Positions 1 to 14,403 of a stretch of 14,403 nucleotides of DNA are shown in pieces. The position numbers were made by a program, and so were the translations under genes. Each line of letters starts with the position of its first letter. The stretch's first letter is position 1. The notes under the pieces are model-generated. The model saw nothing but the letters and a program-made list of their open reading frames with translations, did not search any database and had not been told where the DNA came from. Origin of the DNA: Cyanobacteriota bacterium (GTDB lineage: Bacteria > Cyanobacteriota > Cyanobacteriia > Cyanobacteriales > Nostocaceae); assembly GCA_046045965.1 (NCBI GenBank), contig JBJOKS010000058.1, forward strand, positions 1 through 14,403. Reading direction: 5' to 3'.

Positions 1-2
1 TG

Positions 3-200
3 ATTCATTTCATAGCAATTTATTCAATTCTTCAAAATCTAGCTTTAGGAAATGATACTTTTAATATCCGGTTTGCTGGTGCAACTCCACAGAATCAATT
101 ATTTGGGACTAGAGGTAGTTTAAACTCCAGGATTATATCTCTGGCCTTTCCATTTAGCAGCGGTAATGATGTTGTAGGTGATAGTGATAATTTGGGATAA
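3..200 (+). CDS. 3' end of a hypothetical protein, 5'-truncated by the window
   Basis: Frame 3 is open from the window start to TAA 198-200 (IHFIAIYSILQNLALG...DSDNLG*). It is co-oriented with the next ORF and 6 nt upstream of it. Confidence 0.6.
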   Translation: MHFIAIYSILQNLALGNDTFNIRFAGATPQNQLFGTRGSLNSRIISLAFPFSSGNDVVGDSDNLG

Positions 201-206
201 CCAGTA

Positions 207-773
207 GTGACTACATATTGTAATCCCGGTGATACCGCTCGCGTAACCTTTCCAGATGGGAGTGTTAGAGATTTCAGTAACACTCCCATTGATATATCAG
301 TAGGTGAAGACTACCCTATTTGTCCTACCTATACGGTAAATGTTAGTTACACACAGGTCAGGTCTGACGGATTTGTACAGAATGGAGTTCGTCTTGGACG
401 GCGTTTACCTGTTAGAGCTTATGTCACGGGTGATAATTCTCAGTCTTATATAGTTGATACAGTTTGTTCGGGTGGACAACCAACTGGTGAACGATTTGCA
501 TTGTTAACCGCTGGTTCTCCTGGCGTGATAAGAAGTTTGGTAATTACTGGAATTACGAATAGTCTAACAGCAGCACCAGTGACACCTACTTATAGAATTA
601 CCGTCACATCCGATGGGACTAATCTTTTTACTGGTAGTTTCAATAATCCCAATTATTCAGTCGAATGCATCACAAGTTGCCCACCAAACACACTAGATTG
701 TGGCGATTGCTGCTTAGACTGCGAAGATATTTTTTATAAACTTTGTAACATAAACCAATTATTTATAGGGTAA
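207..773 (+). CDS. Hypothetical protein, beta-rich with Cys-rich C-terminus; possible virion protein
   Basis: 188-aa ORF with GTG start, T/V/G-rich, ending CPPNTLDCGDCCLDC; tight operon spacing. Confidence 0.7.
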   Translation: MTTYCNPGDTARVTFPDGSVRDFSNTPIDISVGEDYPICPTYTVNVSYTQVRSDGFVQNGVRLGRRLPVRAYVTGDNSQSYIVDTVCSGGQPTGERFALLTAGSPGVIRSLVITGITNSLTAAPVTPTYRITVTSDGTNLFTGSFNNPNYSVECITSCPPNTLDCGDCCLDCEDIFYKLCNINQLFIG

Positions 774-779
774 TATATC

Positions 780-2612
780 ATGACAACTTGTAGCCAAATT
801 AATAATGAATTAGGAGCAATAAGTAGTAGTGCAAATAGCATAAGTGCGAAATTAGATAATATTTTAACCCAGAATAACGATATATTAAATAGAATTGGCG
901 GTATAGAATCTAGGTTAGGTGCTATTGAAAGTAGATTGAATGGTTTTGATAGTAAACTTGATGCTATAAATAATTTAATAGATAGTTTAGAGAACATTAT
1001 TGTTACCGCAATAAATAATTTAGGTAATACATTACGTACCTTGATTAGTGAATTGATTGATCTCATAAGAAGTATATTTGGACGTAATAATAATGATAAA
1101 ATTGACGAAATATTAAGTGAAATAAGACGAGCCGGCGAATTTATTATTGATGCAATCAGAATAGTTGGTAGGGAAGTAGTTTTAGGTAGAGACGCTATTC
1201 TTGAAGCGATAAAAAATTGCTGTAACAGAATAGAAGGTTTAATGAGAGAATTTAGAATAGATGGTAAAATACAAGAAATAATAGAAGAAATTAATCGTAG
1301 TGAAGGCTCTATAAAAGAATCTATAGGAGGTTCTGAAATTAGAATTATAAGACAAATAGATCAAAACGAAGGTAAACTAGATATTATAATCAGCAAAATA
1401 GATGGTTTAAATGGTACAGATGATTGGGTAACAAGAATATTATCAGCCATAGCAGGAGTAGCAGCAATATTAAATTTATTAAAAGATAATCAATGTGATA
1501 ATCAAAAAGTGATTGAGCGCATTGATGGTTGTTGCAGTCATTTGTCCAGTCTAATAGTTCAAATTAATTATACTTCTCAATTAACAGCTATATCAAACAA
1601 ACTAGATAGTAACACTACAATTTTAAATACCATCAACTCTACTACATTTTCTATAACAAACGCAGTCAATAATGTATCTAATCAAATTTCTAGGAACACT
1701 ACAATTTTAAATACCATCAACTCTACTACATTTTCTATAACAAACGCAGTCAATAATGTATCTAATCAAATTTCTAGGAACACTACAATTTTAAATACCA
1801 TCAACTCCACTACATTTTCTATAACAAACGCAGTCAATAATGTATCTAATCAAATTTCTGGCAACACTACAATTTTAAATACCATTAACTCTACTACATT
1901 TTCCACATCAAACGCTGACATAAACAATACATTATCGAATATAATCAATAGGACTTTATCTATACAAAATTCTATTGAAAACATCGAATGCAATGGAAGT
2001 GAACCGGTAGAAGTAGAGCTTGTTCAAATTAAAGTTCCGGTATTCGTCGAATGTGAGGGTAATGAACCAAAATTTGATGAAACAGACATATATGTACAAA
2101 AAGGACTAGAAGAAACAGAATTATTAAAGTTTACAAGAATAGCAGAAATTGAGGGAAAACAATGTAGAGAAGCTGTAGCAGTAATTCCTGAATGGTGGCA
2201 GGTTCGGCTAGAAGGTGGTGTACCTCAATTAGTTCTTGCTTGGGGGGAAGTAGATGCTAGTTCTGGAAAATGTTTGCATTCAAAATATGCAATGACAATT
2301 CCCCACTTTATCAACATCCGACCTGAGTCTTGTCCATTTCCAAGATACAGAAAAGGAAATTATGAGCTAATAGCTTATTTTAAAGACAATAGTAAGTTAA
2401 TAATTAACGCTTTCACCGAACATGAATGTGAAAGAGTGTATAACTCTATTCTTCCCTGGATTGATCAAGAATATGCAAGTTCTGTTAGATACAAAGTAGG
2501 CAAGCGGGTTAGTTACCAGTTTAAAGAGGTTTGGGTATGTCCTAAATTTGGGAAATATTTTTCACAGGGGAATAGAGACACAAACCCCGACTGGACAGTG
2601 TACTTTAATTAA
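780..2612 (+). CDS. Long coiled-coil protein with 28-aa internal repeats and a globular C-terminal domain; possible fibre, spike or tape-measure-like protein
   Basis: 610-aa ORF with heptad I/L pattern over ~400 aa and a C-terminal domain (VIPEWWQVRLEGG...). Function is inferred only. Confidence 0.8.
   Translation: MTTCSQINNELGAISSSANSISAKLDNILTQNNDILNRIGGIESRLGAIESRLNGFDSKLDAINNLIDSLENIIVTAINNLGNTLRTLISELIDLIRSIFGRNNNDKIDEILSEIRRAGEFIIDAIRIVGREVVLGRDAILEAIKNCCNRIEGLMREFRIDGKIQEIIEEINRSEGSIKESIGGSEIRIIRQIDQNEGKLDIIISKIDGLNGTDDWVTRILSAIAGVAAILNLLKDNQCDNQKVIERIDGCCSHLSSLIVQINYTSQLTAISNKLDSNTTILNTINSTTFSITNAVNNVSNQISRNTTILNTINSTTFSITNAVNNVSNQISRNTTILNTINSTTFSITNAVNNVSNQISGNTTILNTINSTTFSTSNADINNTLSNIINRTLSIQNSIENIECNGSEPVEVELVQIKVPVFVECEGNEPKFDETDIYVQKGLEETELLKFTRIAEIEGKQCREAVAVIPEWWQVRLEGGVPQLVLAWGEVDASSGKCLHSKYAMTIPHFINIRPESCPFPRYRKGNYELIAYFKDNSKLIINAFTEHECERVYNSILPWIDQEYASSVRYKVGKRVSYQFKEVWVCPKFGKYFSQGNRDTNPDWTVYFN
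1611..1903 (+). repeat. In-frame 84-bp tandem repeat, ~3.5 copies
   Basis: Units start at 1611, 1695, 1779 and 1863 (partial) and encode NTTILNTINSTTFSITNAVNNVSNQIS(R/G); near-identical at DNA level. Confidence 0.97.
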
Positions 2613-2728
2613 CACTCGATCCAGCGCCAGGGCTTAAGTCCCGGCAGTAGTCTAGTGTATGTCCTGATGCACACAAAAATATTGCCAACTTAAGATATTC
2701 ATAAATCTAATCAACAAAAAGGTATTTT

Positions 2729-2986
2729 ATGACTGCAAAAATTGCCGGTGCTGATTTAACCACGTTCAGCGCATTAAATAGTTTAGAACAACAACTTATG
2801 TTCCTTGCAGGTATGCTATTAACAGAACAGAATTCTTATAATGTAGCTAACCCAACTGCACCCAGAAACGTCGTCGCAATTGCTCCAGCGTATGCTACTC
2901 GAACTGCCACCCTACAATGTCAGTTCACTATAGAATCTGACTCGGTTTTGCAAAGCCTTCATGAAAATATAACTCCTGCTTTTTAG
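2729..2986 (+). CDS. Small hypothetical protein (85 aa)
   Basis: ATG preceded by AAAAGGT; co-oriented within the + strand block. Confidence 0.75.
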   Translation: MTAKIAGADLTTFSALNSLEQQLMFLAGMLLTEQNSYNVANPTAPRNVVAIAPAYATRTATLQCQFTIESDSVLQSLHENITPAF

Positions 2987-3004
2987 TAATAAAAAATAAT
3001 TATT

Positions 3005-3565
3005 ATGGCATCACCTCAACGTCCATTAACTGGAGTACGACTCACTTATGAGTTAACGATGGGAACCGTAAAATACAGAGTAAGGATCAAGGAATCCATT
3101 GGCAAATGGTTAGGACTACGCCCCGTTGGACCACAAACAGGAACATTTGCAAGTGGTCCGAATTCTGGTAGGCGATTTTTACGAGCGCCGGCTGGTTTTA
3201 AATTCCAAAGCTTTACTTTCCTACTTCGTCCTGGAGTAACAATAACAGAGCCTATTCCTGGTGACTGCACAGGAGGAACCAGAAGTAGAGAAATATGTAC
3301 ATTTACTCTGGGATTTCCTCGCGGTCTTAAAGAAACACCTATTAACAGGTGGCGTGTTGAATCTTGGGCGCGAGGCACAACACGCGCAAATGACATAATC
3401 GGAATGATTACACCGTCGGGAGTTAAACACGTATGGCGTGAATCCCTAGCAGGTCAGACTGGAATACTCCCAAATGGATTACCCAACCTTCCTTCATTGC
3501 CCGATGGTTTTGATCTTGGTGATGTAATAGGACTAACTGGATCAATCCTCCCGTTACTGTTTTAA
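3005..3565 (+). CDS. Hypothetical protein (186 aa), basic, Gly/Pro-rich with hydrophobic C-terminal tail
   Basis: ORF 18 nt after the previous stop and followed by a long inverted repeat. Confidence 0.75.
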   Translation: MASPQRPLTGVRLTYELTMGTVKYRVRIKESIGKWLGLRPVGPQTGTFASGPNSGRRFLRAPAGFKFQSFTFLLRPGVTITEPIPGDCTGGTRSREICTFTLGFPRGLKETPINRWRVESWARGTTRANDIIGMITPSGVKHVWRESLAGQTGILPNGLPNLPSLPDGFDLGDVIGLTGSILPLLF

Positions 3566-3567
3566 TG

Positions 3568-3612
3568 TTTAGTTAAAAAGCTAAGTAACAAACCTCTAGC
3601 TTTTTAACTAAA
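3568..3612. terminator. 16-bp perfect inverted repeat; possible terminator or protein-binding site
   Basis: TTTAGTTAAAAAGCTA (3568-3583) and TAGCTTTTTAACTAAA (3597-3612) with a 13-nt loop, directly after the stop codon. Confidence 0.55.
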
Positions 3613-3666
3613 ACTATGACTAACTATAATTCCATTTAACAGATAAAACAGATAAAACAGATAAAA

Positions 3667-4032
3667 ATGACAAAAAATGTTATTAAAAAATCGGATTATG
3701 AATTTACAATTTCATTTTCAGATTTACCTGATGAACTGAACCTGAACTTTAAACCATTGGTCGAATCTTTTAATTTACATCTTCTTTACAATAAATTTGT
3801 ACTTTGTCACTGGCAAGCTCGTCCTAAAGGTTTAAGAGGATTTGGCTGGTATGATTTCTTGTCTAAAAAGTATTATTCTATTGATTGGAATAATATTAAA
3901 GTTGAATCAAAATCAATTCCTATTCAGGTAAATGAAATTGAATTTCCCACGGCTTTACCTTCCGCGGTATTGCTTTTCCCTGACTCTTATTTAGTAAAAA
4001 AAACCAACTACTGGAAGCTAACAGATGAGTAG
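3667..4032 (+). CDS. Hypothetical protein (121 aa)
   Basis: ORF overlapping the next gene by 8 nt; TATAAT at 3625-3630 upstream. Confidence 0.7.
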   Translation: MTKNVIKKSDYEFTISFSDLPDELNLNFKPLVESFNLHLLYNKFVLCHWQARPKGLRGFGWYDFLSKKYYSIDWNNIKVESKSIPIQVNEIEFPTALPSAVLLFPDSYLVKKTNYWKLTDE

Positions 4033-4498
4033 GATTTTGGACTTTAAAAATCCTCTAAACTTTTCTTTGGTTTATACTCAAAGCTTACAAGCAGTACCAA
4101 TCAGATCCGCTACAGGAGCAATTATTGATTATTTTCCAATAACAGAAATTATTATCCCTATTATATTTAACAGACCTGTGTGTGCGGTAAATGTAACGAC
4201 TGCTGTACCAGTAGGTAGGATTTGGCGCTATGCAGGAAAGGTAAGCAGAATATTTGACTTTGCTCTAGGTGAAGCATTTTCTGCTGATGAGAGAAAGCAT
4301 TTATTTTTAGGAAGATGGAACATCTGCTTATTTGACAGAATTTTACCTAATGACTACAGGATTGCATATTTACCACCACGGTGGTTTATTAATGTAAATG
4401 TTTCTGTTTACCAATATGAAGGAGTTATTGGAGATACTTTAGAAAATGATATTGCTGCTATTAAAAATTCTTTAAATTTACTATTACCAAATGAATGA
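4025..4498 (+). CDS. Hypothetical beta-rich protein (157 aa)
   Basis: Coupled overlaps with both neighbours (ATGA overlap at 4495-4498). Confidence 0.75.
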   Translation: MSRILDFKNPLNFSLVYTQSLQAVPIRSATGAIIDYFPITEIIIPIIFNRPVCAVNVTTAVPVGRIWRYAGKVSRIFDFALGEAFSADERKHLFLGRWNICLFDRILPNDYRIAYLPPRWFINVNVSVYQYEGVIGDTLENDIAAIKNSLNLLLPNE

Positions 4499-4746
4499 AA
4501 ATGGTTATTACTCAAGAGAAGATGGAATTTGTTGTTTTACTCTTAACAATATTTGGATCTTTCTACAAGCTTACACAAATTGAAAGTCGAATCAAGGAAA
4601 GCATTAAAGAAGTTCAAAAGGCCATTGAACTTCATGTTAAAGATAATGAACTGCTGATTTATCAGGTCAGGGAATTGCAATCAATTTTAAACGACCAACA
4701 AAAAATTCTGAAAAATAGTGGTTTGTTGCGTCGGGAAACAGATTAA
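4495..4746 (+). CDS. Small membrane protein with one TM helix and a coiled coil; holin-like candidate
   Basis: Hydrophobic FVVLLLTIFGSFY followed by a charged heptad segment; last gene before the terminator. Confidence 0.65.
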   Translation: MKMVITQEKMEFVVLLLTIFGSFYKLTQIESRIKESIKEVQKAIELHVKDNELLIYQVRELQSILNDQQKILKNSGLLRRETD

Positions 4747-4827
4747 TGGTATATTTGTACTTGCGGTGCTGTCATGAACTGGAAAAGGTTAACCAGCGCC
4801 GTACTATCCCGATAAGCACAAAAATCC

Positions 4828-4862
4828 AAAAACTCCCCCGGCGCGTGAGGGAGTTTTTTTTT
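4828..4862. terminator. Bidirectional intrinsic terminator between convergent gene blocks
   Basis: AAAAACTCCC (4828-4837) and GGGAGTTTTT (4849-4858), with a T run on + and an A run upstream. Confidence 0.85.
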
Positions 4863-4865
4863 ATT

Positions 4866-4893
4866 GAGTCAGGGGTCAGGAGTCAGGAGGCAG
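4866..4893. repeat. Heptameric STRR-type repeat (GAGTCAG-like x4)
   Basis: GAGTCAG GGGTCAG GAGTCAG GAGGCAG. The same family occurs at 11161-11180, and AGGTGAC x3 at 12221-12241. Such repeats are typical of heterocystous cyanobacteria. Confidence 0.8.
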
Positions 4894-5487
4894 TAACTGA
4901 TAAACTAGCTTATTTCCATTTATGCCAAACCCGCCCCTGATGAAATTTTCAATTTTATGGGGGGATATACCCAGTGCAATCGCCTTCTCAATCATCAACT
5001 TTCTTTCCAGTGCGATCGCATTTTCATGATTTCCCCCAGGAATATGAACATGATGAATTCGCTTGTCATAGTAACAGTAGCGGTAGTACCAATGTCTAGT
5101 TCCGTTGCGAGTTACATAATATTCCTCTACCCATTGAGTTTTTCTTTGTTCTGGAAGTGGGTAAGGTTTTTTTGGGTAGTCCTGTTTTTCTTGTTCTGGA
5201 AGTGCTGAAACTCTTATTTCTTCATCTTCCAGAACACTCATTGCCCGGACATTTACATCTGGGTGCAACTGCTCCCAATCAGTCCAGGAGCGGCCATAAC
5301 TTTCCTGATCAGGATAGTCATTTGGATCTGGTGGTTCCTCGCTGCTGTCATAGAAAAGCGTGGACTGACCATTCTCCTCAACTTTTCCAGAACAATCTAA
5401 AACTATCTCATCCCAATACGGGTCTACATCTCTAGCTCTAGATGGTAATGAGGTGAATTCATCTAAATTAAATAATGTTCCGGTCAT
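4876..5487 (-). CDS. Hypothetical protein: acidic N-terminus, basic/aromatic C-terminal domain, possibly DNA-binding
   Basis: Start re-placed to ATG 5487 (MTGTLFNL...), which has a GAGGAGG SD and an ATGA overlap with the upstream small ORF. C-terminal motif WVEEYYVTRNGTRHWYYRYCY...HVHIPGG. Confidence 0.75.
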   Translation of the reverse strand: MTGTLFNLDEFTSLPSRARDVDPYWDEIVLDCSGKVEENGQSTLFYDSSEEPPDPNDYPDQESYGRSWTDWEQLHPDVNVRAMSVLEDEEIRVSALPEQEKQDYPKKPYPLPEQRKTQWVEEYYVTRNGTRHWYYRYCYYDKRIHHVHIPGGNHENAIALERKLMIEKAIALGISPHKIENFIRGGFGINGNKLVYQLLPPDS

Positions 5488-5660
5488 GACCCCTCCTCTA
5501 TTGGTGTGGGGGGAATTGAGTAATGAGGGCATGGGGAATAATAGCCATTGGCAAGGTGAAGGTAAAAACTACCATCACAGTAAATGGCAAATGGCAAATA
5601 ATTAATGGCAACTTCCCGCTCTTTAATAAAGCCGTTGTTGTTGTATAAGCGTACTTTCAT
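5484..5660 (-). CDS. Small hypothetical protein (58 aa), not in the ORF track
   Basis: Hand translation MKVRLYNNNGFIKEREVAINYLPFAIYCDGSFYLHLANGYYSPCPHYSIPPTPIEEGS*. It fills the gap in the - strand operon and its stop overlaps the next ATG. Confidence 0.6.
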   Translation of the reverse strand: MKVRLYNNNGFIKEREVAINYLPFAIYCDGSFYLHLANGYYSPCPHYSIPPTPIEEGS

Positions 5661-5697
5661 GGTTGGTAAACACTTGGTAAACGGTTACTAATTAAAT

Positions 5698-6357
5698 TCA
5701 AAAATAATCCTGTACTTCCATCACAACACCACCAAAATGCTGACAGATAGAAACATAATTAGTGGGTTGTTCCCAGTAGCGCCGTCTTAAACAACAGCGA
5801 ACCCATCCTTCTGGATTAATAATTTTTTCAGCAGCGCCGCGAAGTTTAAATAACAGCAGGGCGGCTTTAATTTCAAACTGTGGACGGTTTAAAACTTCTG
5901 TTTCTTCAGTGTCAAAATGAATACCCTCCTGAGACATCAACTGTTGATTAGATAAGATATGCTGCTGCTGAACATCAGCATTAACGGAATTATCAGGGTT
6001 TGGATTGGGTGTTTTGTAAGTAGAGTTAGGATTGTGTAATTTTTGTTTTTTAGGTGGTGTTAACCATTCCAATGGTCTAACTACTAACTTAAATATCTTC
6101 CAGGAATACTGTTTAATAACTTGTATTACACGATTTTCTGCTAACAAGTTAAACATCCGTTTCAGGTAATTGTGAGCGTAGCTCTTACCTCTATGTTTTT
6201 TCACCCATTCGTTAAATTTTGATAAGTCTGGTTCTACTTCCTCTTCAATTCCTTCTCTGATCAGCCACTGCCATAAAAGTTTTGCAGCTGGTGGAATTTT
6301 GTTTTTTAGACAGAATTGATCATGTTTTTCTGTCCATTCTGTTGATGTTTTTGGCAT
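5698..6357 (-). CDS. Putative replication initiator-like protein (winged-helix N-terminus, linker, C-terminal helical domain)
   Basis: IPPAAKLLWQWL N-terminus, low-complexity P/N/Q linker and C-terminal IINPEGWVRCCLRRRYW, resembling phage/plasmid replication organizers. Recognised by pattern only. Confidence 0.55.
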   Translation of the reverse strand: MPKTSTEWTEKHDQFCLKNKIPPAAKLLWQWLIREGIEEEVEPDLSKFNEWVKKHRGKSYAHNYLKRMFNLLAENRVIQVIKQYSWKIFKLVVRPLEWLTPPKKQKLHNPNSTYKTPNPNPDNSVNADVQQQHILSNQQLMSQEGIHFDTEETEVLNRPQFEIKAALLLFKLRGAAEKIINPEGWVRCCLRRRYWEQPTNYVSICQHFGGVVMEVQDYF

Positions 6358-6465
6358 AATGTATAAATGACCACCCCTCTCTGGTGGTATTCAAGTTTTT
6401 AAATACAGGAATCTGTCACCACCTAGCGCGTAGGTGGTTGGAATGTTGAGGCTGGATTTTAGATT

Positions 6466-6732
6466 TTAGGGTTTGGGCGGAGCAAAACTATCTGGTAGGT
6501 CCTGGATAGCCTTGCCGTGAGATTTCAAAAGTTTGTCTAGTGCCTTGAGTTGGGGAATTGTAAAGGATGGAACATTAACTCCAGCCTCCCATCGGCTAAC
6601 AGTTCTTAAACTTACGCCAATAGTTCTGCCAAATTCCTCCTGACTCATGCCAAGCTCGTCTCTAAGGTGTGCCAAGGGTGATTTGCCCCCATTTTGACTT
6701 TCCGGTTTTTGATCGTTAGGTGTTTTATTCAT
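6466..6732 (-). CDS. XRE/Cro-CI family helix-turn-helix transcriptional regulator (likely repressor)
   Basis: LAHLRDELGMSQEEFGRTIGVSLRTVSRWEAGVNVP is a canonical HTH_3 motif. Start re-placed to ATG 6732 because the upstream part overlaps the promoter/operator region. Confidence 0.9.
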   Translation of the reverse strand: MNKTPNDQKPESQNGGKSPLAHLRDELGMSQEEFGRTIGVSLRTVSRWEAGVNVPSFTIPQLKALDKLLKSHGKAIQDLPDSFAPPKP

Positions 6733-6740
6733 TATAACCT

Positions 6741-6797
6741 GCCATGACATCATGGCATGACCTATTGACATAAATCAAGTAGTCATGACATAATGAC
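6741..6797. promoter_or_regulatory. Divergent overlapping promoters with two palindromic operators
   Basis: Operators GCCATGA-CA-TCATGGC (6741-6756) and GTCAT-GACATA-ATGAC (6782-6797). Rightward promoter: TTGACA 6765-6770, 18 bp, extended -10 TGaCATAAT ending 6794. Leftward promoter: TTGATT (6778-6773), 18 bp, CATGAT (6754-6749). Confidence 0.75.
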
Positions 6798-6800
6798 GTA

Positions 6801-7292
6801 TGTGAGACAACAAGAATCCAACCGAGTTGGAAACCCGGTAGATGGTAAGCACTTGGTTGGATGATTGAAAGTCTCTCACTTTCGAGAACGACCTGACACG
6901 GGGATGATGCTGTATCATTCCCGTGACCGCTCCCTCCTCTCCTTTGCCTTGTGCCTGAGAGGACACACCATACTAAGTCGGAGCAAGCACCCACGCATTT
7001 TTGACTGCGAGTGTCCGCGCGTGGAACCAACCCCCAGCACACAGATGAATTGCGCGTCCCCATTAATTTGGGGACTTTTCCTCTCATGTCTGCAATCTAT
7101 AAACTGATTGCATATATCAACATACTTATTTTTCAGAGAGTTTGGAGGTGATGCTAGACGACAATCAACATAAACATGATCTGAAGTGAACTGCTTTCCC
7201 GTTTCTCCCACGGGAAGTAATTACAATATTTTGCATTTATGACGCTTCTGTTCCAAGTCAATATTAGCTGGTGGTTAATATTGACTTTTTCT
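6801..7292 (+). ncRNA. Candidate long structured ncRNA or leader RNA
   Basis: About ten consecutive hairpins, several with G-U pairs only on the + strand, between the promoter and a terminator-like stem; no convincing CDS. Confidence 0.5.
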
Positions 7293-7293
7293 T
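7255..7293 (+). terminator. Intrinsic terminator or attenuator
   Basis: AAGTCAATATTAGC pairs with GTTAATATTGACTT (one G-U), running into TTTTTCTT. Confidence 0.65.
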
Positions 7294-7343
7294 AACGATG
7301 ACATCCCTTTTGACCGCAGCACATCCGAAGGAGGTGATTTTTG

Positions 7344-7550
7344 ATGAAGCTTCTCAAACTTCCCAGTGGTGACTATATCAATTTAGAATTAGCTTGCACT
7401 GTAGAATTTGGTACTTTTCCTGACGGAAGTGGTGTCTCGCACCAAAGATGCAAAATTTTTTGGAGTGACAACAACTCTGATGTTTATTGCGACAATGTAG
7501 CAATTTTTATCAAAGACTATCTTGATAAAAATCATGATAGTTTGAATTAG
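7344..7550 (+). CDS. Small hypothetical protein (68 aa)
   Basis: Strong SD AAGGAGGT at 7328-7335 and ATG at 7344; ends 14 nt before the ribozyme. Confidence 0.75.
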   Translation: MKLLKLPSGDYINLELACTVEFGTFPDGSGVSHQRCKIFWSDNNSDVYCDNVAIFIKDYLDKNHDSLN

Positions 7551-7564
7551 ATCACTATAATCAA

Positions 7565-7650
7565 CCGCCTGACGATACGACTAACTTATAGTCGGCTACC
7601 TGGACCCGGTAGCCGAAACACACCCCGCGGTGTGTCGCGGATTGGGTCCA
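7565..7650 (+). ncRNA. Type I hammerhead ribozyme with pseudoknot and an extra inserted hairpin
   Basis: Stem I CCGC 7565-7568/GCGG 7637-7640; core CUGACGA 7569-7575; stem II GGCUACC 7594-7600/GGUAGCC 7608-7614; GAAA 7615-7618; stem III CACACC 7619-7624/GGUGUG 7629-7634; GUC cleavage triplet, cut after C7636. Loop II UGGACCC 7601-7607 pairs with GGGUCCA 7644-7650. Confidence 0.88.
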
Positions 7651-7805
7651 AACCAATCTTGCAAACTGCAAAAGTAACTTAAGGCTTTAAAAGAGAATTA
7701 AGCTCTTTGGCTTTTTTCCATTCGTAAGCTTGGTTGCTTTTGCTGCTTTGAGGCTGAATCAGGCTGATTAATTTCTGGCCTTTGGGTGATTCGTAAGCGT
7801 AACTT
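7637..7805 (+). ncRNA. IS110 bridge RNA with target-binding and donor-binding loops; ends approximate
   Basis: Two parallel internal loops of form GCUUU-N10-hairpin-...AUUC-GUAAGC (7684-7729, 7745-7798). Segment 7751-7759 equals junction 9005-9013, and 7716-7723 is the reverse complement of junction 9010-9017. Confidence 0.82.
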
Positions 7806-7829
7806 TAGTTCACACCCTTTACAAATTAT

Positions 7830-9011
7830 ATGAGAATAGTTGGTTTAGATGTCTCTAAATCATCGGTTTCGTGTTGCCTTTTAACAGAAAAACCGAGTGA
7901 TGTTAGAGAATTTTATTATGACTGCAAGTTTTACCACTTCCAGAACAACCAAGAGGGTATTTCTGGAATGCTGGCATTAAAGCCAGATGTGGCAATTCTT
8001 GAACCAACCGGGGTCAATTACTCCAAATTCTGGACTCAACTTCTGACCCGTGCTGGAGTAGAAATTAGATTAGTAGGACATAAGGAATTGCGGCGCTATC
8101 GGGAAAACCATTTACAGTTACCAGATAAAGACGACGATGCTGATTCACTGGCCATAGCTTGCTACTACTTTGATTACTGTGGCGATCGCTCTCGATGGGT
8201 GAGAGTTTTAGACCCGGTGGTTTCCAGAATCAGGGAATTAATCTTGAGATTGAACCATCTAAGTAAGGTTCAGTCCCCAATTATTAACCGTGCTAGACAG
8301 GATTTAGCTTGGCAGTTTCCAGAAGTAGCATTGGTTAATTCTCAGCGTGGTGTTTCTGGGAACGTACCTTTGCTTTGGGGATGGTTGGCAGGAGAAAGGC
8401 AAAGTACAAAATATGATCGACTTTACTCCCAAACCGCCGGCGTGGGATTAACTGATTCGGTAAAGTTTCACTCGCAGCGCATTTGTTCTTTACAGAGAGA
8501 GGAACAATTAATTGAGGATGAGTTGGCTGTATTGCTAAAGGACGCTAGGTTTGAAAAATATATACAAGTGTTTGAAGAATTTAAATTTGGCGATCGCCTT
8601 CAGGCTACTATCCTTAGTCAAATTTTCCCACTAGAAAACTTTTTTGGTGAAGATGGTAAACCAGTGGTAAAAATTCGTAAGGGTAGGATTTCTGGAAAAC
8701 CTACCAAAAGATACTTGAGCTTGAGACGATTTCAGAAGGCGTTAGGATACGCACCTACTCAAGAATCATCTGGGGATATTTCCAAAAATAAAGTATCTGG
8801 TGGGAGTGCTGTTTGTAGAAAAGCAATCTGGCAGTGGGTATTTAGCAGTGTTGAACCCGCCCGCCGTCGTTCCAATCCACTGGTCAAAGAGTTGGGTAAC
8901 TGGCTTGATCAGGAAAAGAAAGCAGGTGTACCAGTGGCATTGGTCAGGAGCAGAACGGCAGTAAAAGCTGTTAAGCTCTTATTTAAAAAACTGGTAAATT
9001 TCTTAGGCTGA
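7830..9011 (+). CDS. IS110-family DEDD recombinase/transposase
   Basis: N-terminal RuvC-like motifs GLDVSK, ILEPTG and KDDDADS, a coiled-coil middle, and a C-terminal Tnp domain with GYAPTQESSG (catalytic Ser region); intact 393 aa. Confidence 0.95.
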   Translation: MRIVGLDVSKSSVSCCLLTEKPSDVREFYYDCKFYHFQNNQEGISGMLALKPDVAILEPTGVNYSKFWTQLLTRAGVEIRLVGHKELRRYRENHLQLPDKDDDADSLAIACYYFDYCGDRSRWVRVLDPVVSRIRELILRLNHLSKVQSPIINRARQDLAWQFPEVALVNSQRGVSGNVPLLWGWLAGERQSTKYDRLYSQTAGVGLTDSVKFHSQRICSLQREEQLIEDELAVLLKDARFEKYIQVFEEFKFGDRLQATILSQIFPLENFFGEDGKPVVKIRKGRISGKPTKRYLSLRRFQKALGYAPTQESSGDISKNKVSGGSAVCRKAIWQWVFSSVEPARRRSNPLVKELGNWLDQEKKAGVPVALVRSRTAVKAVKLLFKKLVNFLG

Positions 9012-9389
9012 ATGGAAGACTATCGAGATAGGTTAGTTGTCATTGTCGCTGGTTATAGTGAAGAAATGTCGCAGTTTATTAATACTAATCCTGGGTTACA
9101 ATCGAGATTTAATAGATACTTTTATTTCGATGACTATAAACCAGAAGAACTATTAAATATTTTTGCAGGAATATGTAAGCAACAACATTATAGAATCACC
9201 CCACGAGGTCAAGAAAAATTATTGCAACAGTTTACCAAATTGTATAATGAAAAAGATAATAGTTTTGGAAATGGTAGACTTGTCAGAAATATGTTTGAGA
9301 AAATAATTGAAAGACAAGCTAACAGATTGGTGAAAATCAATGCTATTAACAAAGAAATGATGATGACTATTACCTGGGAGGATGTTTAA
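9012..9389 (+). pseudogene. 3' portion of an interrupted SpoVK/CbbX-family AAA+ ATPase gene
   Basis: MEDYRDRLVVIVAGY...NPGLQSRF...FGNGRLVRNMFEK matches the post-Walker-B and lid region. Walker A/B are absent because the sequence is fused directly to the recombinase stop. Confidence 0.88.
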
Positions 9390-9654
9390 TAACTTATCAA
9401 AAATATCACTGAATTGTTAAAAAGAGTCGGGAATATTATGCTATATTAAAATAGTATCTATTCTAAAAAACAAAAGACTGCTTGTTGCTCATGATATGCC
9501 AGCTGTTTTTTGGCCTCACAAATGAGCTGGCTGATGAGTTTCCCAGGGATTCCTTCAATTGACTCCCCTCCAATGATAGGGGTATTTGATTCGTGGCTAT
9601 CTTTTCTACCAGTTCTGATCTGGTAAGTCCCATCCCTTTGGTGGGTTTTTCATT

Positions 9655-9882
9655 AAATAAAGTATCTGGTGGTAGCACTGTCTGTAGAAAGGCGATATGG
9701 CAATGGGTTTTTGCCGCTGTGGAGCCAAAGCGCCGCCGCACTAATTTACTGGTGAAAGAGTTGGGGGAATGGTTGGATCAGGAAAAATCCACAGGTAAGC
9801 CGGTGACATTGGTGAGAAGTCGAACCGCAGTAAAAGCTGTTAAGCTCTTGTTTAAAAAATTGGTAAATCTTTTAGACTGAAT
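9655..9882 (+). pseudogene. 3' remnant of a second, paralogous IS110 recombinase
   Basis: Aligns without gaps to 8786-9013 (offset 869); 61 of 74 aa identical by hand count; also ends ...CTGAAT. Confidence 0.92.
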
Positions 9883-11138: not shown

Positions 11139-11411
11139 TAAGGCTGACATTAGTAAGAATTCAGGAGTCAGGAGTCAGAATATTGGATAAATCAGTAGAT
11201 TATCAATATGTGATTTTTAGTCTCATCCTTAAAAAGCTGATTACTGATAGCTGAATCCTAATTTAATGTTTTGATCTGAACCGACAAGTATTGCCTCACA
11301 TTTTGCAATTAACCTCACAACTTCCTCACAAACTAGCTCTAAATTTTAAATAAATCTGGTGTTTTGCGTAGTATCGACAAATATCAAACTAGGCTAAGTT
11401 GTGAGGTAGTA

Positions 11412-12233
11412 ATGAGTGCATCACCATCAAGCCAAAAACCCCATTGTGCCTTAGTTTATGGTCCAGTAAAATCTTGGCGATTTGGGCGATCGCTCGGGAT
11501 CGATCCTATAGGGATAATATCTACCTGTTCCTTTAACTGTATCTATTGTCAGTTAGGGAATATTCAACAACAAACAACTCAACGGCAAATTTTTGTCCCT
11601 ACTAGCCAAATTATCTCGGAACTGCAAGCGATCGCACCTAGAGAAATACCGTTAGATGTAGTAACTATTAGTGGCAGTGGTGAACCTACCCTAGCACTGA
11701 ATTTAGAAGAAATTATCGCAGCTACAAAAGAAATCTTTAAACAACCAAAAGTAGTATTAACTAATAGCACCTTGTTAGGTGATCCATTAGTCCGTAAAGC
11801 CTTATCACTAGCTGATATTGTCGCAGTTAAATTGGATGCTGTTTCGTCAAATCAACTACTGCAAATTAATCGACCTCTAGAGACAATTGATTTACCAGAT
11901 ATTATTAAGGGAATTACACAATTTAGACAGGAATATCAGGGAAGGATGGCAATACAAACCATGATTTTGTCTTCCTGGACAGCACAAACCCAAGCCTATT
12001 ACATCCATTTGCTCAAAGTTCTCCAACCTGATGAAATACAACTTAACATTCCTTCCCGTCCCCGTGTCCTAGTTAGTCAGTTAGAATCCAGAGGTAATGA
12101 CATTGCTGAATCTCGCGCCTATACTTGTGAAAATTTCAAATTGCTCACTTTTGAAGAACTCAGTGCTATGGCACAAAAAATTCACAATGTTACTAAAATT
12201 CCTGTGCGTTATCCCATACTAGGTGACAGGTGA
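11412..12233 (+). CDS. Radical SAM protein (Fe-S oxidoreductase, Tyw1-like)
   Basis: YGPVKSWRFGRSLGID, CSFNCIYC (CxxxCxxC) and SGSGEPTL; ATG 11412 follows GAGG. Confidence 0.9.
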   Translation: MSASPSSQKPHCALVYGPVKSWRFGRSLGIDPIGIISTCSFNCIYCQLGNIQQQTTQRQIFVPTSQIISELQAIAPREIPLDVVTISGSGEPTLALNLEEIIAATKEIFKQPKVVLTNSTLLGDPLVRKALSLADIVAVKLDAVSSNQLLQINRPLETIDLPDIIKGITQFRQEYQGRMAIQTMILSSWTAQTQAYYIHLLKVLQPDEIQLNIPSRPRVLVSQLESRGNDIAESRAYTCENFKLLTFEELSAMAQKIHNVTKIPVRYPILGDR

Positions 12234-12279
12234 CAGGTGACGAGTATGTCAATGTTGTATTTTTAAGGAGTTAAGAAAA

Positions 12280-12903
12280 ATGACGACAACATCAACTGAA
12301 ATCTTATCAACATCCACAGAAATTCCCGCTGGCTATCTGAATATTATGGGTTATGTTGATAAATCAGAAGTTAATGGTCCTGGTTGTCGAGCGGTGGTTT
12401 GGGTACAAGGTTGTCCTCGTGAGTGCGAAGGTTGTTTTAATCCCGACTCTTGGACTTTTGAAATTAACAAGTTAGTTTCTATTGATCAATTAGCTGAAGA
12501 TATTATCAAAAACCCTGAAAATACAGGTGTAACTTTCTCCGGTGGTGAACCATTTTGGCAAGCATCCGCATTAGCTAGTTTAGCACGTAAGGTTAAAGCT
12601 GCCGGTTTAAATGTCATGGCTTTTACTGGTTTTACTCTCAAGCAATTACAATCTGAATCAGCACCTCCTGGATCTCAGGAATTGTTAGCAGAATTAGATA
12701 TTTTAATTGATGGTCCTTTTGTCCAGTCTCAAGCAATAAATTCTCCTTTGTCTCCTGTTTCTTCTAAAAATCAACAAGTTCATGTTTTTAACCCAGAATT
12801 TAAAGATCAAATTAGTTGGGCCAGTGATCAAATAGAAGTTCATGTTCTCAAAGATGGCGATCGCATTGTCACCGGTTATCAAGGTTGGTTAGAATTAACC
12901 TAA
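12280..12903 (+). CDS. Radical SAM protein, NrdG/organic radical activating enzyme-like
   Basis: NGPGCRAVVWVQGCPRECEGCFNP, TFSGGEPF and DILIDGPF; SD AAGGAG. Confidence 0.9.
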   Translation: MTTTSTEILSTSTEIPAGYLNIMGYVDKSEVNGPGCRAVVWVQGCPRECEGCFNPDSWTFEINKLVSIDQLAEDIIKNPENTGVTFSGGEPFWQASALASLARKVKAAGLNVMAFTGFTLKQLQSESAPPGSQELLAELDILIDGPFVQSQAINSPLSPVSSKNQQVHVFNPEFKDQISWASDQIEVHVLKDGDRIVTGYQGWLELT

Positions 12904-12932
12904 GTCAATTATCAGTTATGATTTTTAGTATT

Positions 12933-12956
12933 GGGAGCATCTAGCTCCCCTTTTTT
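12933..12956 (+). terminator. Intrinsic terminator
   Basis: GGGAGC-ATCTA-GCTCCC followed by C and T6. Confidence 0.75.
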
Positions 12957-13057
12957 ATATAACAACCCTCTGGGAAAAATATATTTATTAATACTTGGTT
13001 AATTTATGTTATAATCTTCACATCTTCATTTATGAAACTTCAATTATTCCCGCTTTT

Positions 13058-14403
13058 ATGAAACGTCTTTACTACGGTGATAATCTCCAAGTTCTCAGAG
13101 ATAAAATCCCTAATGAATCTATTGATTTAATTTACCTTGATCCGCCTTTTAATTCTAAATCTAATTATAATATTCTCTTTAAAAATGCCACTGGGGAAAA
13201 ATCAGAAGCGCAAATTACAGCTTTTGAAGATACCTGGATTTGGGGAATTGAATCAGAAAGATTTTTAGATGAAATCCAAGATCAAAAAGGAGAATTATAT
13301 CAGTTATTAGATTTATTAGTCAGAACATTAGGTAAAAATTCATTATCAGCTTATTTGGTAATGATGGCAATTAGATTAATAGAATTACATCGAGTTCTGA
13401 AATCTACAGGCAGTTTATATTTACATTGTGATACTACAGCCAGTCATTATTTAAAAATGATTTTAGACTTAATATTTGATGCTAGAAATTATCGTAACCA
13501 AATTACTTGGAAACGAACTAGCAGTCATAGCGATGCTAAAAAATATGCAAGAATTACAGATATTATTTTCTACTATGTCAAATCTAATGAATTTACATGG
13601 AATCCTCAACGCTTGAGTTATTCTGAAGAATATATCAAACAATATTATTGTAATATTGATAGCGACGGTAGAAGATTTCAATTTGATAATTTAACAAACC
13701 CAAAAACAAGCAAAGGTTATTTTTATAAATTGTTAAATTGTGATCCTCCTGAGAATGGTTGGAGAATGCCGGAATCTCGCGCCGAAGAGTGGCTAAGTCA
13801 AGGTAAAATTGCGATACCACCAACAGGGAAAACACCACGTTATAAACGTTATTTAGATGAGGTTCAAGGTAAAGTTATTCCCGATATTTGGGATGATATA
13901 CCGCCTATTAATTCTCAAGCTAAGGAAGCTTTAGGATATCCTACCCAAAAACCTTTAACATTATTAGAAAGAATCATTCAAATTAGTAGTCATCAAGATG
14001 ATATTATTCTTGATCCATTTTGTGGATGTGGAACAGCAATACACGCAGCGGAAAATTTAGGCAGAAATTGGATGGGGATTGATATTACTCATTTAGCAAT
14101 TTCTTTAATAGAAAAAAGATTAAGAGACGCTTTTCCGAGCAAATTTATTGAAGATGAAAACAAAAATCAAAAATTAGTACCAGGGATAGAATTTGAAGTT
14201 GAAGGTACACCCAAAGATTTAGCCGCAGCAATAGATTTATTTAATAGAGATGCTTATCAATTTCAATGGTGGGCTTGTTCTTTAGTCAATGCACAACCAT
14301 ATAAAGATAAAAAGAAAGGTGCAGATGGGGGAATTGATGGTTTAATCTTTTTTGAAGATGTCATAGATATCAAAAAATCAAATAAAACCGCAGTGAAAAA
14401 AAT
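13058..14403 (+). CDS. Beta-class N6-adenine/N4-cytosine DNA methyltransferase, probably fused to a C-terminal Mrr-like endonuclease domain; 3'-truncated by the window
   Basis: Hand translation from ATG 13058: MKRLYYGDNL...IDLIYLDPPFNS (motif IV), GYPTQKP, ILDPFCGCGT (motif I), then FQWWACSLV...KKGADGGIDG. Absent from the ORF track because no stop lies in the window. Confidence 0.9.
   Translation, partial: MKRLYYGDNLQVLRDKIPNESIDLIYLDPPFNSKSNYNILFKNATGEKSEAQITAFEDTWIWGIESERFLDEIQDQKGELYQLLDLLVRTLGKNSLSAYLVMMAIRLIELHRVLKSTGSLYLHCDTTASHYLKMILDLIFDARNYRNQITWKRTSSHSDAKKYARITDIIFYYVKSNEFTWNPQRLSYSEEYIKQYYCNIDSDGRRFQFDNLTNPKTSKGYFYKLLNCDPPENGWRMPESRAEEWLSQGKIAIPPTGKTPRYKRYLDEVQGKVIPDIWDDIPPINSQAKEALGYPTQKPLTLLERIIQISSHQDDIILDPFCGCGTAIHAAENLGRNWMGIDITHLAISLIEKRLRDAFPSKFIEDENKNQKLVPGIEFEVEGTPKDLAAAIDLFNRDAYQFQWWACSLVNAQPYKDKKKGADGGIDGLIFFEDVIDIKKSNKTAVKK

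Follow-up and report, generated by a model that had tools for sequence, protein, structure and literature searches.

The window, i.e. the whole 14,403-nt stretch of DNA analysed here, holds the right-hand part of a mobile element that interrupts an AAA+ gene and is mobilized by a bridge recombinase of the IS110 type; the recombinase gene and the bridge RNA occupy its far right. The following features surround the ribozyme motif that is the subject of this work.

1 to 7564: cargo of the same element, mostly unknown ORFs; limits taken from the guide matches; continues off the contig towards the left end on contig C46
6466 to 6771, minus strand: XRE-type HTH gene, by Pfam HTH_3 match only
7341 to 7550, plus strand: 69-aa ORF that closes the cargo ahead of the ribozyme; helix I starts 15 nt after its stop codon
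7534 to 7561, plus strand: promoter-like site ATGATA-16-TATAAT, by consensus match alone (10/12, the best in 6900 to 9100)
7668 to 7743, plus strand: target-binding stem-loop with LTG AAAGAGA (7690 to 7696) and RTG UUCCAUUC (7716 to 7723)
7745 to 7810, plus strand: donor-binding stem-loop with LDG AGGCUGA (7751 to 7757) and RDG GGGUGAUUC (7784 to 7792)
7830 to 9011, plus strand: IS110-family (DEDD) recombinase, 393 aa (Pfam PF01548, 31.5 bits versus a cut-off of 29)
9012 to 9389, plus strand: C-terminal 125 aa of the AAA+ (SpoVK/CbbX-like) target gene (Pfam AAA_lid_6, 1.7e-21), forming the right target flank

Limits and Guides of the Element

On the recombinase, PF02371 scored 19.7 bits, under its cut-off of 21.3. 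The 873 homologues of the protein came mostly from Nostocales, and no homologue was detected in a search of viral contigs. The TGA stop codon of the recombinase gene contains the GA core and delimits the element on the right, and homology with relatives stops at 9012. The N-terminal half of the interrupted AAA+ protein is encoded on contig C46 and ends with ...EAIDTLLKR; the protein resumes in the window as MEDYRDRLVV, and the split halves are collinear with an intact paralogue on contig C14. The left end of the element was located on C46, adjacent to the remaining part of the AAA+ gene. Because this end lies on a different contig, the element has a length of at least 9.5 kb (478 nt on C46 and 9011 nt in the window). 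In three relatives (L092, L093, and L094), elements of about 14.0, 14.5, and 15.0 kb start with ATCCCCAA 12.5–13.6 kb upstream of the hammerhead, and their left flanks match LTG at 6–7 of 7 positions. The three share RDG and the left-end start with the element of the window. These lengths place the circle junction 8–13 kb from the RNA, the distance being at least 8 kb in the element of the window. A preliminary description of this DNA had proposed that cargo separates the circle junction from the RNA, and the positions of the left ends on C46 and in the three relatives bear this out. The cargo includes a 610-aa coiled-coil protein; resistance genes were not seen in it.

The guides in both loops matched the true target and donor ends. 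LTG corresponds to left target plus core (...TTAAAGA/GA on C46, 7/7 positions), and RTG is antisense to GAATGGAA at 9010–9017 (8/8). LDG corresponds to right end plus core (TTAGGCT/GA at 9003–9011, 7/7), and RDG is antisense to GA/ATCCCC, i.e. core plus left end on C46 (8/9, with one bulged U). In 23 of 64 loci, the right flank had its best antisense match at the RNA position of RTG. A left-junction script run on 3-kb flanks extracted RDG in 3 loci only. By the guide matches, the region 7637–7829, immediately 5' of the recombinase gene, represents a true IS110 bridge RNA, as had been suspected from the first inspection.

A Type I Hammerhead Motif Precedes the Bridge RNA

Immediately upstream of the bridge RNA, the following elements were read, all on the plus strand.

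7565 to 7568: CCGC, 5' strand of helix I, which pairs with GCGG at 7637 to 7640 (4 bp)
7569 to 7575: CUGACGA, catalytic core C3 U4 G5 A6 N7 G8 A9
7576 to 7593: an extra U (7576) followed by a 17-nt insertion (7577 to 7593), between A9 and G10.1; non-canonical
7594 to 7600 with 7608 to 7614: helix II (7 bp) with loop UGGACCC (7601 to 7607)
7615 to 7617: GAA, core G12 A13 A14
7618 to 7624 with 7629 to 7635: helix III (7 bp) with loop CCGC; its first pair is A15.1-U16.1 (A7618-U7635)
7636: C7636, equal to H17, with the predicted cut 3' of it (C7636/G7637)
7637 to 7657: GCGG, 3' strand of helix I, then the hairpin AUUGG-GUCCAAA-CCAAU; proposed 5' end of the released RNA

Read from the sequence, 7565–7640 contains the complete core of a type I hammerhead. 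All core bases and three helices were present, in line with the complete core and the cleavage after C7636 that had been predicted before. The cut would fall 53 nt before the first guide (LTG, 7690) and 193 nt before the recombinase ATG (7830). The hammerhead fold together with the downstream hairpin lay at most 2.7 kcal/mol above the minimum free energy. A9 and G7594 are set apart in the window by U7576 plus 17 nt, the stacking place of G10.1 being on A9. The 17-nt insertion can form a hairpin of its own (7579–7583/7589–7593), which can compete for G7594 of helix II. A left end of the element at the hammerhead itself, with the target providing helix I plus CU, was considered and rejected: in 55 of 57 loci, the sequence immediately to the left does not match LTG, and the true junctions lie on C46 and, in three relatives, far upstream.

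Models from Rfam gave no hammerhead match in the window at the gathering score, and the Rfam hammerhead models gave none in 7300–7900 at E ≤ 10. Against relative L025, RF00163 aligned over its full length (1–45 of 45) with 12.9 bits versus a gathering score of 34. A covariance model, R1, was built from 49 distinct relatives; it matched the window over the complete model length with 54.1 bits (E 9.7e-10), and this match was the sole one in the 5.3-Mb genome. In searches of homologous loci, the Rfam hammerhead models matched 0/20 relatives at the gathering score. With R1, 75 loci had sufficient upstream DNA to be assessed; in 73 of these the motif preceded the recombinase gene, in every case on the same strand as the gene. 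In the two others, L043 and L065, the motif was absent by R1. It was found in addition before a 386–404-aa ORF with an IS110-like start in three genomes from other cyanobacterial orders. As evident from the R1 score, the single match in the genome, and its presence in 73/75 loci, the hammerhead motif is far beyond chance.

Conservation and Covariation

Among the 49 relatives, C3, G5, A6, G8, and A9 as well as GAAAC and the A15.1-U16.1 pair were invariant. U4 was present in at least 90% (C instead in 4/49), as was the cleavage triplet GUC; relative L018 carried GUA, H17 thus being A in 1/49. Paired cells amounted to 93.3% as compared with 29–40% in slid controls, and the observed covariation was reached by none of 500 shuffles. 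Helix II showed compensatory changes in 4 of 5 counted pairs, with 95.9% of cells paired, and was closed by a G-C pair in 45/49 relatives. In helix III, 5 of 7 pairs were compensatory, in 13–29 of the 49 sequences each, and 98.2% of cells were paired. The inner two pairs of helix I were standard in all 49, and the outer two were unpaired in 7 and 11 sequences, respectively. Because helix I is conserved without compensatory change in this set, it has no independent covariation support. The junction between A9 and G10.1 varied in length: the closest relatives (L001 to L005 and L010) have the extra U alone, and 14 distinct sequences of a Nostoc clade have an insertion of ~30–40 nt comprising two hairpins, with the core intact.

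The helix II loop (7601–7607) is complementary to 7644–7650, the loop of the first hairpin after helix I. Across relatives, GAC-NN of loop II pairs with NN-GUC of this hairpin in six covarying variants; pair 30–79 of the resulting pseudoknot is UA in 27, CG in 14, and AU in 3 of the 49 sequences, and genomes of other orders carry further variants, GACGC/GCGUC and GACGU/ACGUC. Over 66 distinct sequences, the loop-loop complement was a perfect 5 nt in 35, 4 nt in 10, and missing in 21. The hammerhead, whose helix I of 4 bp is very short, is likely kept together by this pseudoknot, which joins the helix II loop to the loop of the first bridge RNA hairpin.

Upstream Reading Frames, Promoters, and Transcripts

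The 69-aa ORF preceding the ribozyme had no Pfam or PHROG match. An upstream frame on the same strand, 50 aa or longer, terminates between -45 and +8 nt from C3 in 46 of 64 loci; the upstream stop codon ends 1–7 nt before C3 in 31 of the 64 and is the UGA of the CUGA box itself in 11. Upstream frames that abut the hammerhead in this manner make a polycistronic origin of the bridge RNA likely, so that the transcript arrangement first put forward for this locus stands at that strength. The promoter-like site 7534–7561 is a strong one by consensus; a start ~7 nt past it would fall within the 5' strand of helix I, and the site could initiate transcripts devoid of that strand. No such site recurred at a constant distance in relatives. 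The consensus scan of 6900–9100 yielded no promoter-like site just 5' of 7637.

Transcripts were seen in metatranscriptome contigs. The set X1 contained a 130-nt contig identical to the window and covering exactly 7637–7766, with a depth of 312.4; like all RNA data used here it is an assembled contig from a single study and carries no strand or end-chemistry information. Other X1 contigs had depths of 26.6 (7555–7666), 8.5 (7212–7584), and 5–11 (recombinase gene). The 7637–7766 contig was therefore about 12–37-fold deeper than the upstream contigs, ~12-fold deeper than the one crossing the site, and 30–60-fold deeper than the recombinase region. The RNA 5' end that the preliminary description had anticipated at G7637 has its counterpart in a contig end at this position. 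With about 16 contig ends per 3101 nt, the chance of an end at the predicted cut is ~0.5% by our own arithmetic. A 3163-nt contig of a relative (X2, 52 differences) runs across 7637 unbroken, and a piece from another set (X3, a relative with 16 differences) starts at 7618 and shows no break at 7637. None of the contigs listed for X1 covers 7767–7934.

Proposed Release of the Bridge RNA from the Cargo Transcript

We propose that the hammerhead, by its predicted cleavage, releases the 5' end of the bridge RNA from a cargo operon transcript, and we estimate the probability of this reading at roughly 80%. Since the bridge RNA is situated at the far right of the element, a promoter reconstituted across the circle junction, which is the arrangement of compact IS110 elements, cannot drive it; it is probably transcribed as the tail of the cargo operon, possibly under control of the neighbouring XRE-type repressor. 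The type I hammerhead, placed right after and often overlapping the last cargo stop codon, would cut C7636/G7637. The product would be a bridge RNA that starts with GCGG and, as we infer, carries a 5'-OH end, and the ribozyme would remain as the 3' terminus of the cargo message. After the cut, the first hairpin segment, freed from the pseudoknot, could rearrange into the 5' stem-loop of the released RNA. The presumed benefit is a bridge RNA 5' end independent of which cargo happens to precede it.

A working hammerhead might alternatively have as its main job the formation of a structured 3' end of the cargo message or the uncoupling or limitation of recombinase expression through severing of the recombinase message from the operon, the bridge RNA 5' end being a by-product. 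In 42 of 64 loci the ribozyme abuts or overlaps the upstream stop codon, so that cleavage would leave the cargo RNA with a folded 3' terminus, and the low depth of the recombinase region in X1 is consistent with this explanation as well. However, the motif accompanies the module of bridge RNA and recombinase, whereas the upstream frames across loci belong to several unrelated families, and the covariation of the helix II loop with the first bridge RNA hairpin ties the ribozyme structurally to the downstream RNA. We consider a role confined to the cargo side or to recombinase expression unlikely.

The insertion at the A9/G10.1 junction, which can pair with G7594, and the lack of an Rfam match raise the question whether the copy in the window is a hammerhead disabled by the 17 nt, the end at 7637 stemming from a host RNase or from an assembly artefact; the RNA evidence consists of contigs only. 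In one natural viroid hammerhead, an additional base between A9 and G10.1 is tolerated. The window retains all core bases, the Nostoc clade keeps a larger, structured insertion at the same place next to an intact core, and the contig end equals the predicted cut to the base, which together make a disabled copy quite improbable. It is very improbable that the CUGAnGA...GAAAC...GUC block is a non-catalytic structured leader, for instance a part of a longer bridge RNA that binds a protein or aids folding. Helix I is weak and catalysis is predicted only, as such a leader would allow, but the catalytic bases do not vary and the pairing positions in helices II and III change freely, as is expected for a hammerhead, and the abundant RNA species leaves out the CUGAnGA...GUC block.

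Beyond the release of the bridge RNA by cleavage, a wider interpretation is offered tentatively, with the odds slightly against it. Hammerhead, bridge RNA, and recombinase might form a portable, self-insulating module in which guide maturation is independent of the operon that happens to precede the module, and the IS110 recombinase might act as a regulated integrase/excisionase of 10–15-kb elements. The loop-loop pseudoknot might be a switch, the hairpin activating the ribozyme first and attaining its final fold only after cleavage. Ribozyme-flanked guide RNAs might then have a precedent in nature.

Bridge recombinases are under development as programmable genome-rearrangement tools, and RNA production in integrated elements matters in this respect; in the available text of a 2026 Nature paper (PMC13626964), integrated IS621 is reported to express its bridge RNA only weakly. 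If true, release by a hammerhead would show how large cargo-carrying elements solve bridge RNA expression and would offer a ready-made 5' processing module with which any transcript could serve as a source of bridge RNA. Hammerheads would also gain a divergent subfamily, missed by the current models of Rfam, in which stem I is split, a pseudoknot is present, and the A9/G10.1 insertions are large.

Comparison with Known Systems

Literature searches retrieved no published description of a ribozyme-matured bridge RNA, in agreement with the preliminary description, which was aware of none. The motif shares with type I hammerheads (RF00163, clan CL00010) the core bases, three helices, an open helix I, GUC, and a contact between stem I and the stem II loop. 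It differs in that it scores far under the Rfam gathering score, has a helix I of only 4 bp, uses as the stem I contact partner a separate hairpin after the 3' strand, and accommodates insertions of 1, 18, or ~30–40 nt between A9 and G10.1. Its bacterial setting before a guide RNA also sets it apart.

As far as the available text of Durrant et al. (2024, PMC11208160) shows, the bridge RNA of IS621, an IS110 element, is likewise positioned 5' of the recombinase gene, and a 5' stem-loop is followed by target- and donor-binding loops with discontiguous RDG pairing. The core is CT in IS621 and GA here, and the RNA described here is preceded by a ribozyme and lies 8–13 kb from the left end. In IS621, according to the same text, the bridge RNA promoter is rebuilt across the RE-LE circle junction; given the distance to the left end, the present element cannot rely on a junction promoter of this kind. 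Large cargo IS110 elements were described by Hu et al. (bioRxiv 10.64898/2026.08.14.744561), in the available text of which the terms promoter and ribozyme have 0 occurrences each. In these elements, too, an IS110 recombinase and a bridge RNA move a unit far larger than 1.5 kb; the cargo of the cyanobacterial elements differs from theirs in consisting of conserved unknown genes and a short tyrosine recombinase.

In synthetic ribozyme-flanked guide RNAs, a self-cleaving ribozyme sets the guide end regardless of promoter and upstream sequence, as is proposed here. The hammerhead-guide-HDV design is a construct of this type. These constructs are engineered, whereas the present case is natural and has its ribozyme 5' of the guide RNA; an HDV ribozyme was placed 3' of the bridge RNA by Durrant et al. 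(PMC11208160, available text). Ribozyme and guide RNA also coexist in one natural transposon transcript in IStrons, which combine a group I intron with TnpB (PMC13521648). There, as far as the available text extends, the self-splicing intron excises the element from the host mRNA and no small nucleolytic ribozyme trims the guide, whereas the hammerhead described here would trim the 5' end of the bridge RNA.

Hammerhead Motif Upstream of the Recombinase Gene

In this cargo-bearing IS110 element the hammerhead heads a genuine bridge RNA, and its function is, with a probability of about 0.8, maturation of the 5' end of that RNA. The following features were placed on the window; core and helices are as read from the sequence.

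6466-6771, minus strand: XRE-type HTH gene upstream of the recombinase (Pfam/PHROG scan)
7534-7561: promoter-like site, 10/12 consensus match
7565-7568 with 7637-7640: helix I, CCGC with GCGG
7569-7575: hammerhead core CUGACGA
7576 and 7577-7593: extra U and 17-nt insertion
7594-7600 with 7608-7614: helix II
7601-7607 with 7644-7650: loop-loop contact, UGGACCC with GGGUCCA
7615-7617: core GAA
7618-7624 with 7629-7635: helix III
7636: core position C17
7690-7696: left target guide (LTG) of the bridge RNA, AAAGAGA
7716-7723: right target guide (RTG), UUCCAUUC, antisense to GAATGGAA at 9010-9017
7751-7757: left donor guide (LDG), AGGCUGA, equal to right end plus core, TTAGGCTGA
7830-9011: IS110-family recombinase, 393 aa (PF01548, 31.5 bits; cut-off 29)
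9012-9389: AAA_lid_6 fragment, 125 aa, downstream of the recombinase

The predicted cut falls after C7636, in agreement with the preliminary description. An Rfam scan of the window gave nothing at gathering score, and an Rfam hammerhead was not found in 7300-7900 even at E ≤ 10. The minimum-free-energy fold favored a long hairpin in which the helix II loop pairs with 7641-7650; the hammerhead fold plus downstream hairpin lay 2.7 kcal/mol above it.

PF02371 scored 19.7 bits on the recombinase, under its cut-off of 21.3 (Pfam scan). At E ≤ 1e-3 the recombinase has 873 homologous proteins, which abound in Nostocales cyanobacteria. Mainly ORFs without known family and one 610-aa coiled-coil protein lie 5' of it (ORF list, Pfam/PHROG). 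A possible operator or terminator lies between the divergent XRE-type gene and a small plus-strand ORF: a near-perfect 15-bp inverted repeat at 7255-7287 (AAGTCAATATTA...TAATATTGACTT) with a T run after it. Outside the element, 11364-14401 holds a row of a radical SAM protein, a 4Fe-4S (Fer4_12) radical SAM protein, and a large N6_N4 DNA methylase, which may form a DNA-modification cluster.

Conservation in Relatives

Among 80 related loci, most recombinase genes were preceded by CUGAnGA, ~25 nt, CGAAAC, a variable hairpin, and GUC followed, across the cut, by GCGG. Alignment A2 comprised 49 distinct sequences, with carriers of long insertions left out. Positions C3, G5, A6, G8, A9, G12-A14, A15.1, C15.2, and U16.1 were invariant in it, and 93.3% of cells were paired (29-40% in slid controls). 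The observed covariation was reached by none of 500 shuffles. Compensatory changes occurred at 5 of 7 pairs of helix III, each in 13-29 of the 49 sequences, and at 4 of 5 pairs of helix II. None was seen in helix I, whose outer two pairs were unpaired in 7 and 11 of the 49.

Covariance model R1, built from A2, carried out the search upstream of homologous IS110 genes that had been proposed earlier. At E ≤ 2.6e-6 it gave the window (54.1 bits, E 9.7e-10) and 74 further matches, spread over 73 of the 80 loci, for a total of 75. The training set contributed 49 of the matching sequences and contained neither the window nor the insertion-bearing clade. Seven loci yielded no match: five offer <135 nt upstream, too little for a judgment, and two with enough upstream DNA, L043 and L065, lack the motif by R1. 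The type I hammerhead model of Rfam (RF00163) aligned end-to-end with relative L025 at 12.9 bits (gathering score 34), and no gathering score of any kind was attained by the 20 relatives scanned. Judged by sequence comparison, the motif is real and conserved. R1 found it in 12 of 151 sampled cyanobacterial genomes and exactly once in the own genome. In three genomes of other orders it again lies ahead of an ORF, 386-404 aa long, whose start resembles that of IS110 proteins.

In a Nostoc clade (L006, L031, L032, L034, L038, L046, L047, L050, L052-L057) a 30-40-nt insertion of two hairpins, one containing the palindrome GCGATCGC, sits between A9 and helix II, the site of the 17-nt insertion in the window; the core is kept. 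In locus L073 a single recombinase gene is preceded by two hammerhead copies (1139-1221 and 1324-1401) spaced 185 nt apart, with a similar bridge RNA start after each.

Directly after helix I comes a hairpin whose loop contains NN-GUC, the complement of GAC-NN in the helix II loop. The variable pair covaried (UA 27, CG 14, AU 3, of 49), and variants in other orders were GACGC/GCGUC and GACGU/ACGUC. Among 66 distinct sequences, the loop complement was a perfect 5 nt in 35, 4 nt in 10, and absent in 21. Alternatively, the contact bases can close the local hairpin, which was 81.6% paired. From these sequence patterns we read the contact as a putative pseudoknot, which would make up for helix I being just 4 bp long and yield to the hairpin after cleavage.

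Bridge RNA Guides and Element Ends

The RNA downstream of the hammerhead is a genuine bridge RNA; its guides were compared with the scheme in the available part of Durrant et al. (PMC11208160). The region around the recombinase stop codon had its longest antisense match at the RTG position, beginning at the right-end GA, in 23 of 64 loci. This sets GA as the core and the recombinase stop codon as the right end. Sequence homology with relatives stops at 9012. In the window the LTG did not match the DNA immediately left of the hammerhead, a mismatch shared by 55 of 57 loci examined.

In the interrupted AAA+ gene, the residues ..KRMED.. are encoded by the predicted target AAAGA-GA-ATGGAAGAC. A search of the own genome placed the N-terminal half of this gene on contig C46, ending ...EAIDTLLKR at ...TTATTAAAGA-GA-ATCCCCAATCAC... 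and collinear with an intact paralogue on contig C14. The left end there begins ATCCCC and, apart from one bulged U, matches the right donor guide (RDG) GGGUGAUUC (7784-7792). The element thus consists of 478 nt of C46, an intervening gap, and window 1-9011, at least 9.5 kb. Three other genomes have this left-end start 12.5-13.6 kb upstream of the hammerhead, with left flanks matching their own LTG at 6-7 of 7 positions; these elements measure about 14.0, 14.5, and 15.0 kb. Cargo thus does separate the circle junction from the RNA, as first supposed. One 14-15-kb relative carries ORFs of no known family and a 192-aa Phage_integrase-family protein, and four small co-directional ORFs lead directly into its hammerhead.

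The 3' portion of a tyrosine recombinase gene (Phage_integrase family) occupies 1-471, plus strand, of C46 (locus L084) and stops 7 nt inside the left end; a 192-aa homologue lies mid-element in L093. A ~230-bp 3'-terminal remnant of a second IS110 recombinase gene (9655-9881; 82% amino acid identity over residues 317-392), 640 bp downstream of the first element, has its own right end TTTTAGACTGA and neither hammerhead nor bridge RNA. A second recombinase copy, on the minus strand of contig C93 of the own genome (L082/L085) at ~277-1360, shows 94% amino acid identity over residues 33-393 and contains a single in-frame TAA. R1 detected no hammerhead on C93, part of which duplicates window 7000-7296 with 98% identity.

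Transcripts Across the Cut Site

Same-strand open frames of ≥50 aa terminate between -45 and +8 nt relative to C3 in 46 of 64 loci, the stop codon ending 1-7 nt ahead of C3 in 31 of the 46. Eleven loci (L003, L012, L013, L015-L017, L030, L061, L062, L071, L077) use the UGA within the CUGA box as this stop, so a terminating ribosome would sit on the catalytic core. In the window the upstream frame stops 18 nt before C3. Because these frames belong to several unrelated families and the block of hammerhead, RNA, and recombinase is constant, the bridge RNA is likely co-transcribed with cargo. The promoter-like site at 7534-7561, whose position is not conserved among relatives, could add transcripts starting inside helix I; no such site was found just upstream of 7637.

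The stretch is present in two metatranscriptomes. Contigs of one study, which carry neither strand nor end chemistry, were placed on 6400-9500 (3101 nt). Run X1 gave identical contigs at 7212-7584 (depth 8.5), 7637-7766 (312.4), and 7935-8391 (5-11), and one at 7555-7666 (26.6) with an extra T after 7593. An RNA 5' end at G7637 had been expected, and the abundant, unstranded contig begins exactly there, at the predicted first base of the 3' cleavage product; ~16 contig ends are spread over the 3101 nt, which by our arithmetic puts the odds of one hitting that base by chance at roughly 0.5%. In run X2 the cut site is spanned by a 3163-nt contig that belongs to a relative and carries 52 differences, and in X3 a low-depth piece begins at 7618. 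At its other end the abundant contig stops at 7766, which falls within the donor-binding loop region, short of the RDG; this is either a true 3' end, in which case the mature RNA would be shorter, or an assembly break.

Proposed Maturation of the Bridge RNA

A cargo operon transcript, putatively under repressor control, would continue into the hammerhead. Helices II and III would fold first, the hairpin loop after helix I would dock onto the helix II loop, and the 4-bp helix I would then close, presumably allowing catalysis of the cut after C7636. The short helix I would let both products separate, leaving a bridge RNA that begins GCGG with a predicted 5'-OH. By fold prediction, its first 26 nt could then refold into a stem-loop burying the 5' end. 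Such cleavage would define the 5' end independently of upstream cargo and the distant circle junction. Expression from the integrated state, weak for IS621 according to the available part of PMC13626964, would also be possible.

Relation to Known Systems

The literature searched, with subscription journals outside its coverage, contained no description of a bridge RNA preceded by a natural ribozyme, in agreement with the earlier impression that no ribozyme-matured bridge RNA had been described. Large cargo-bearing IS110 elements are treated in an August 2026 preprint (10.64898/2026.08.14.744561), from the available text of which the words "promoter" and "ribozyme" are both absent. The one source with both hammerheads and bridge RNA (bioRxiv 10.64898/2026.10.21.760802) takes them up separately in the part available; its divergent hammerhead cluster of 152 loci, given there without genomic context, may overlap the family upstream of the IS110 recombinase. 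Hammerhead, bridge RNA, and large IS110 element are each of a known kind; their arrangement may be new.
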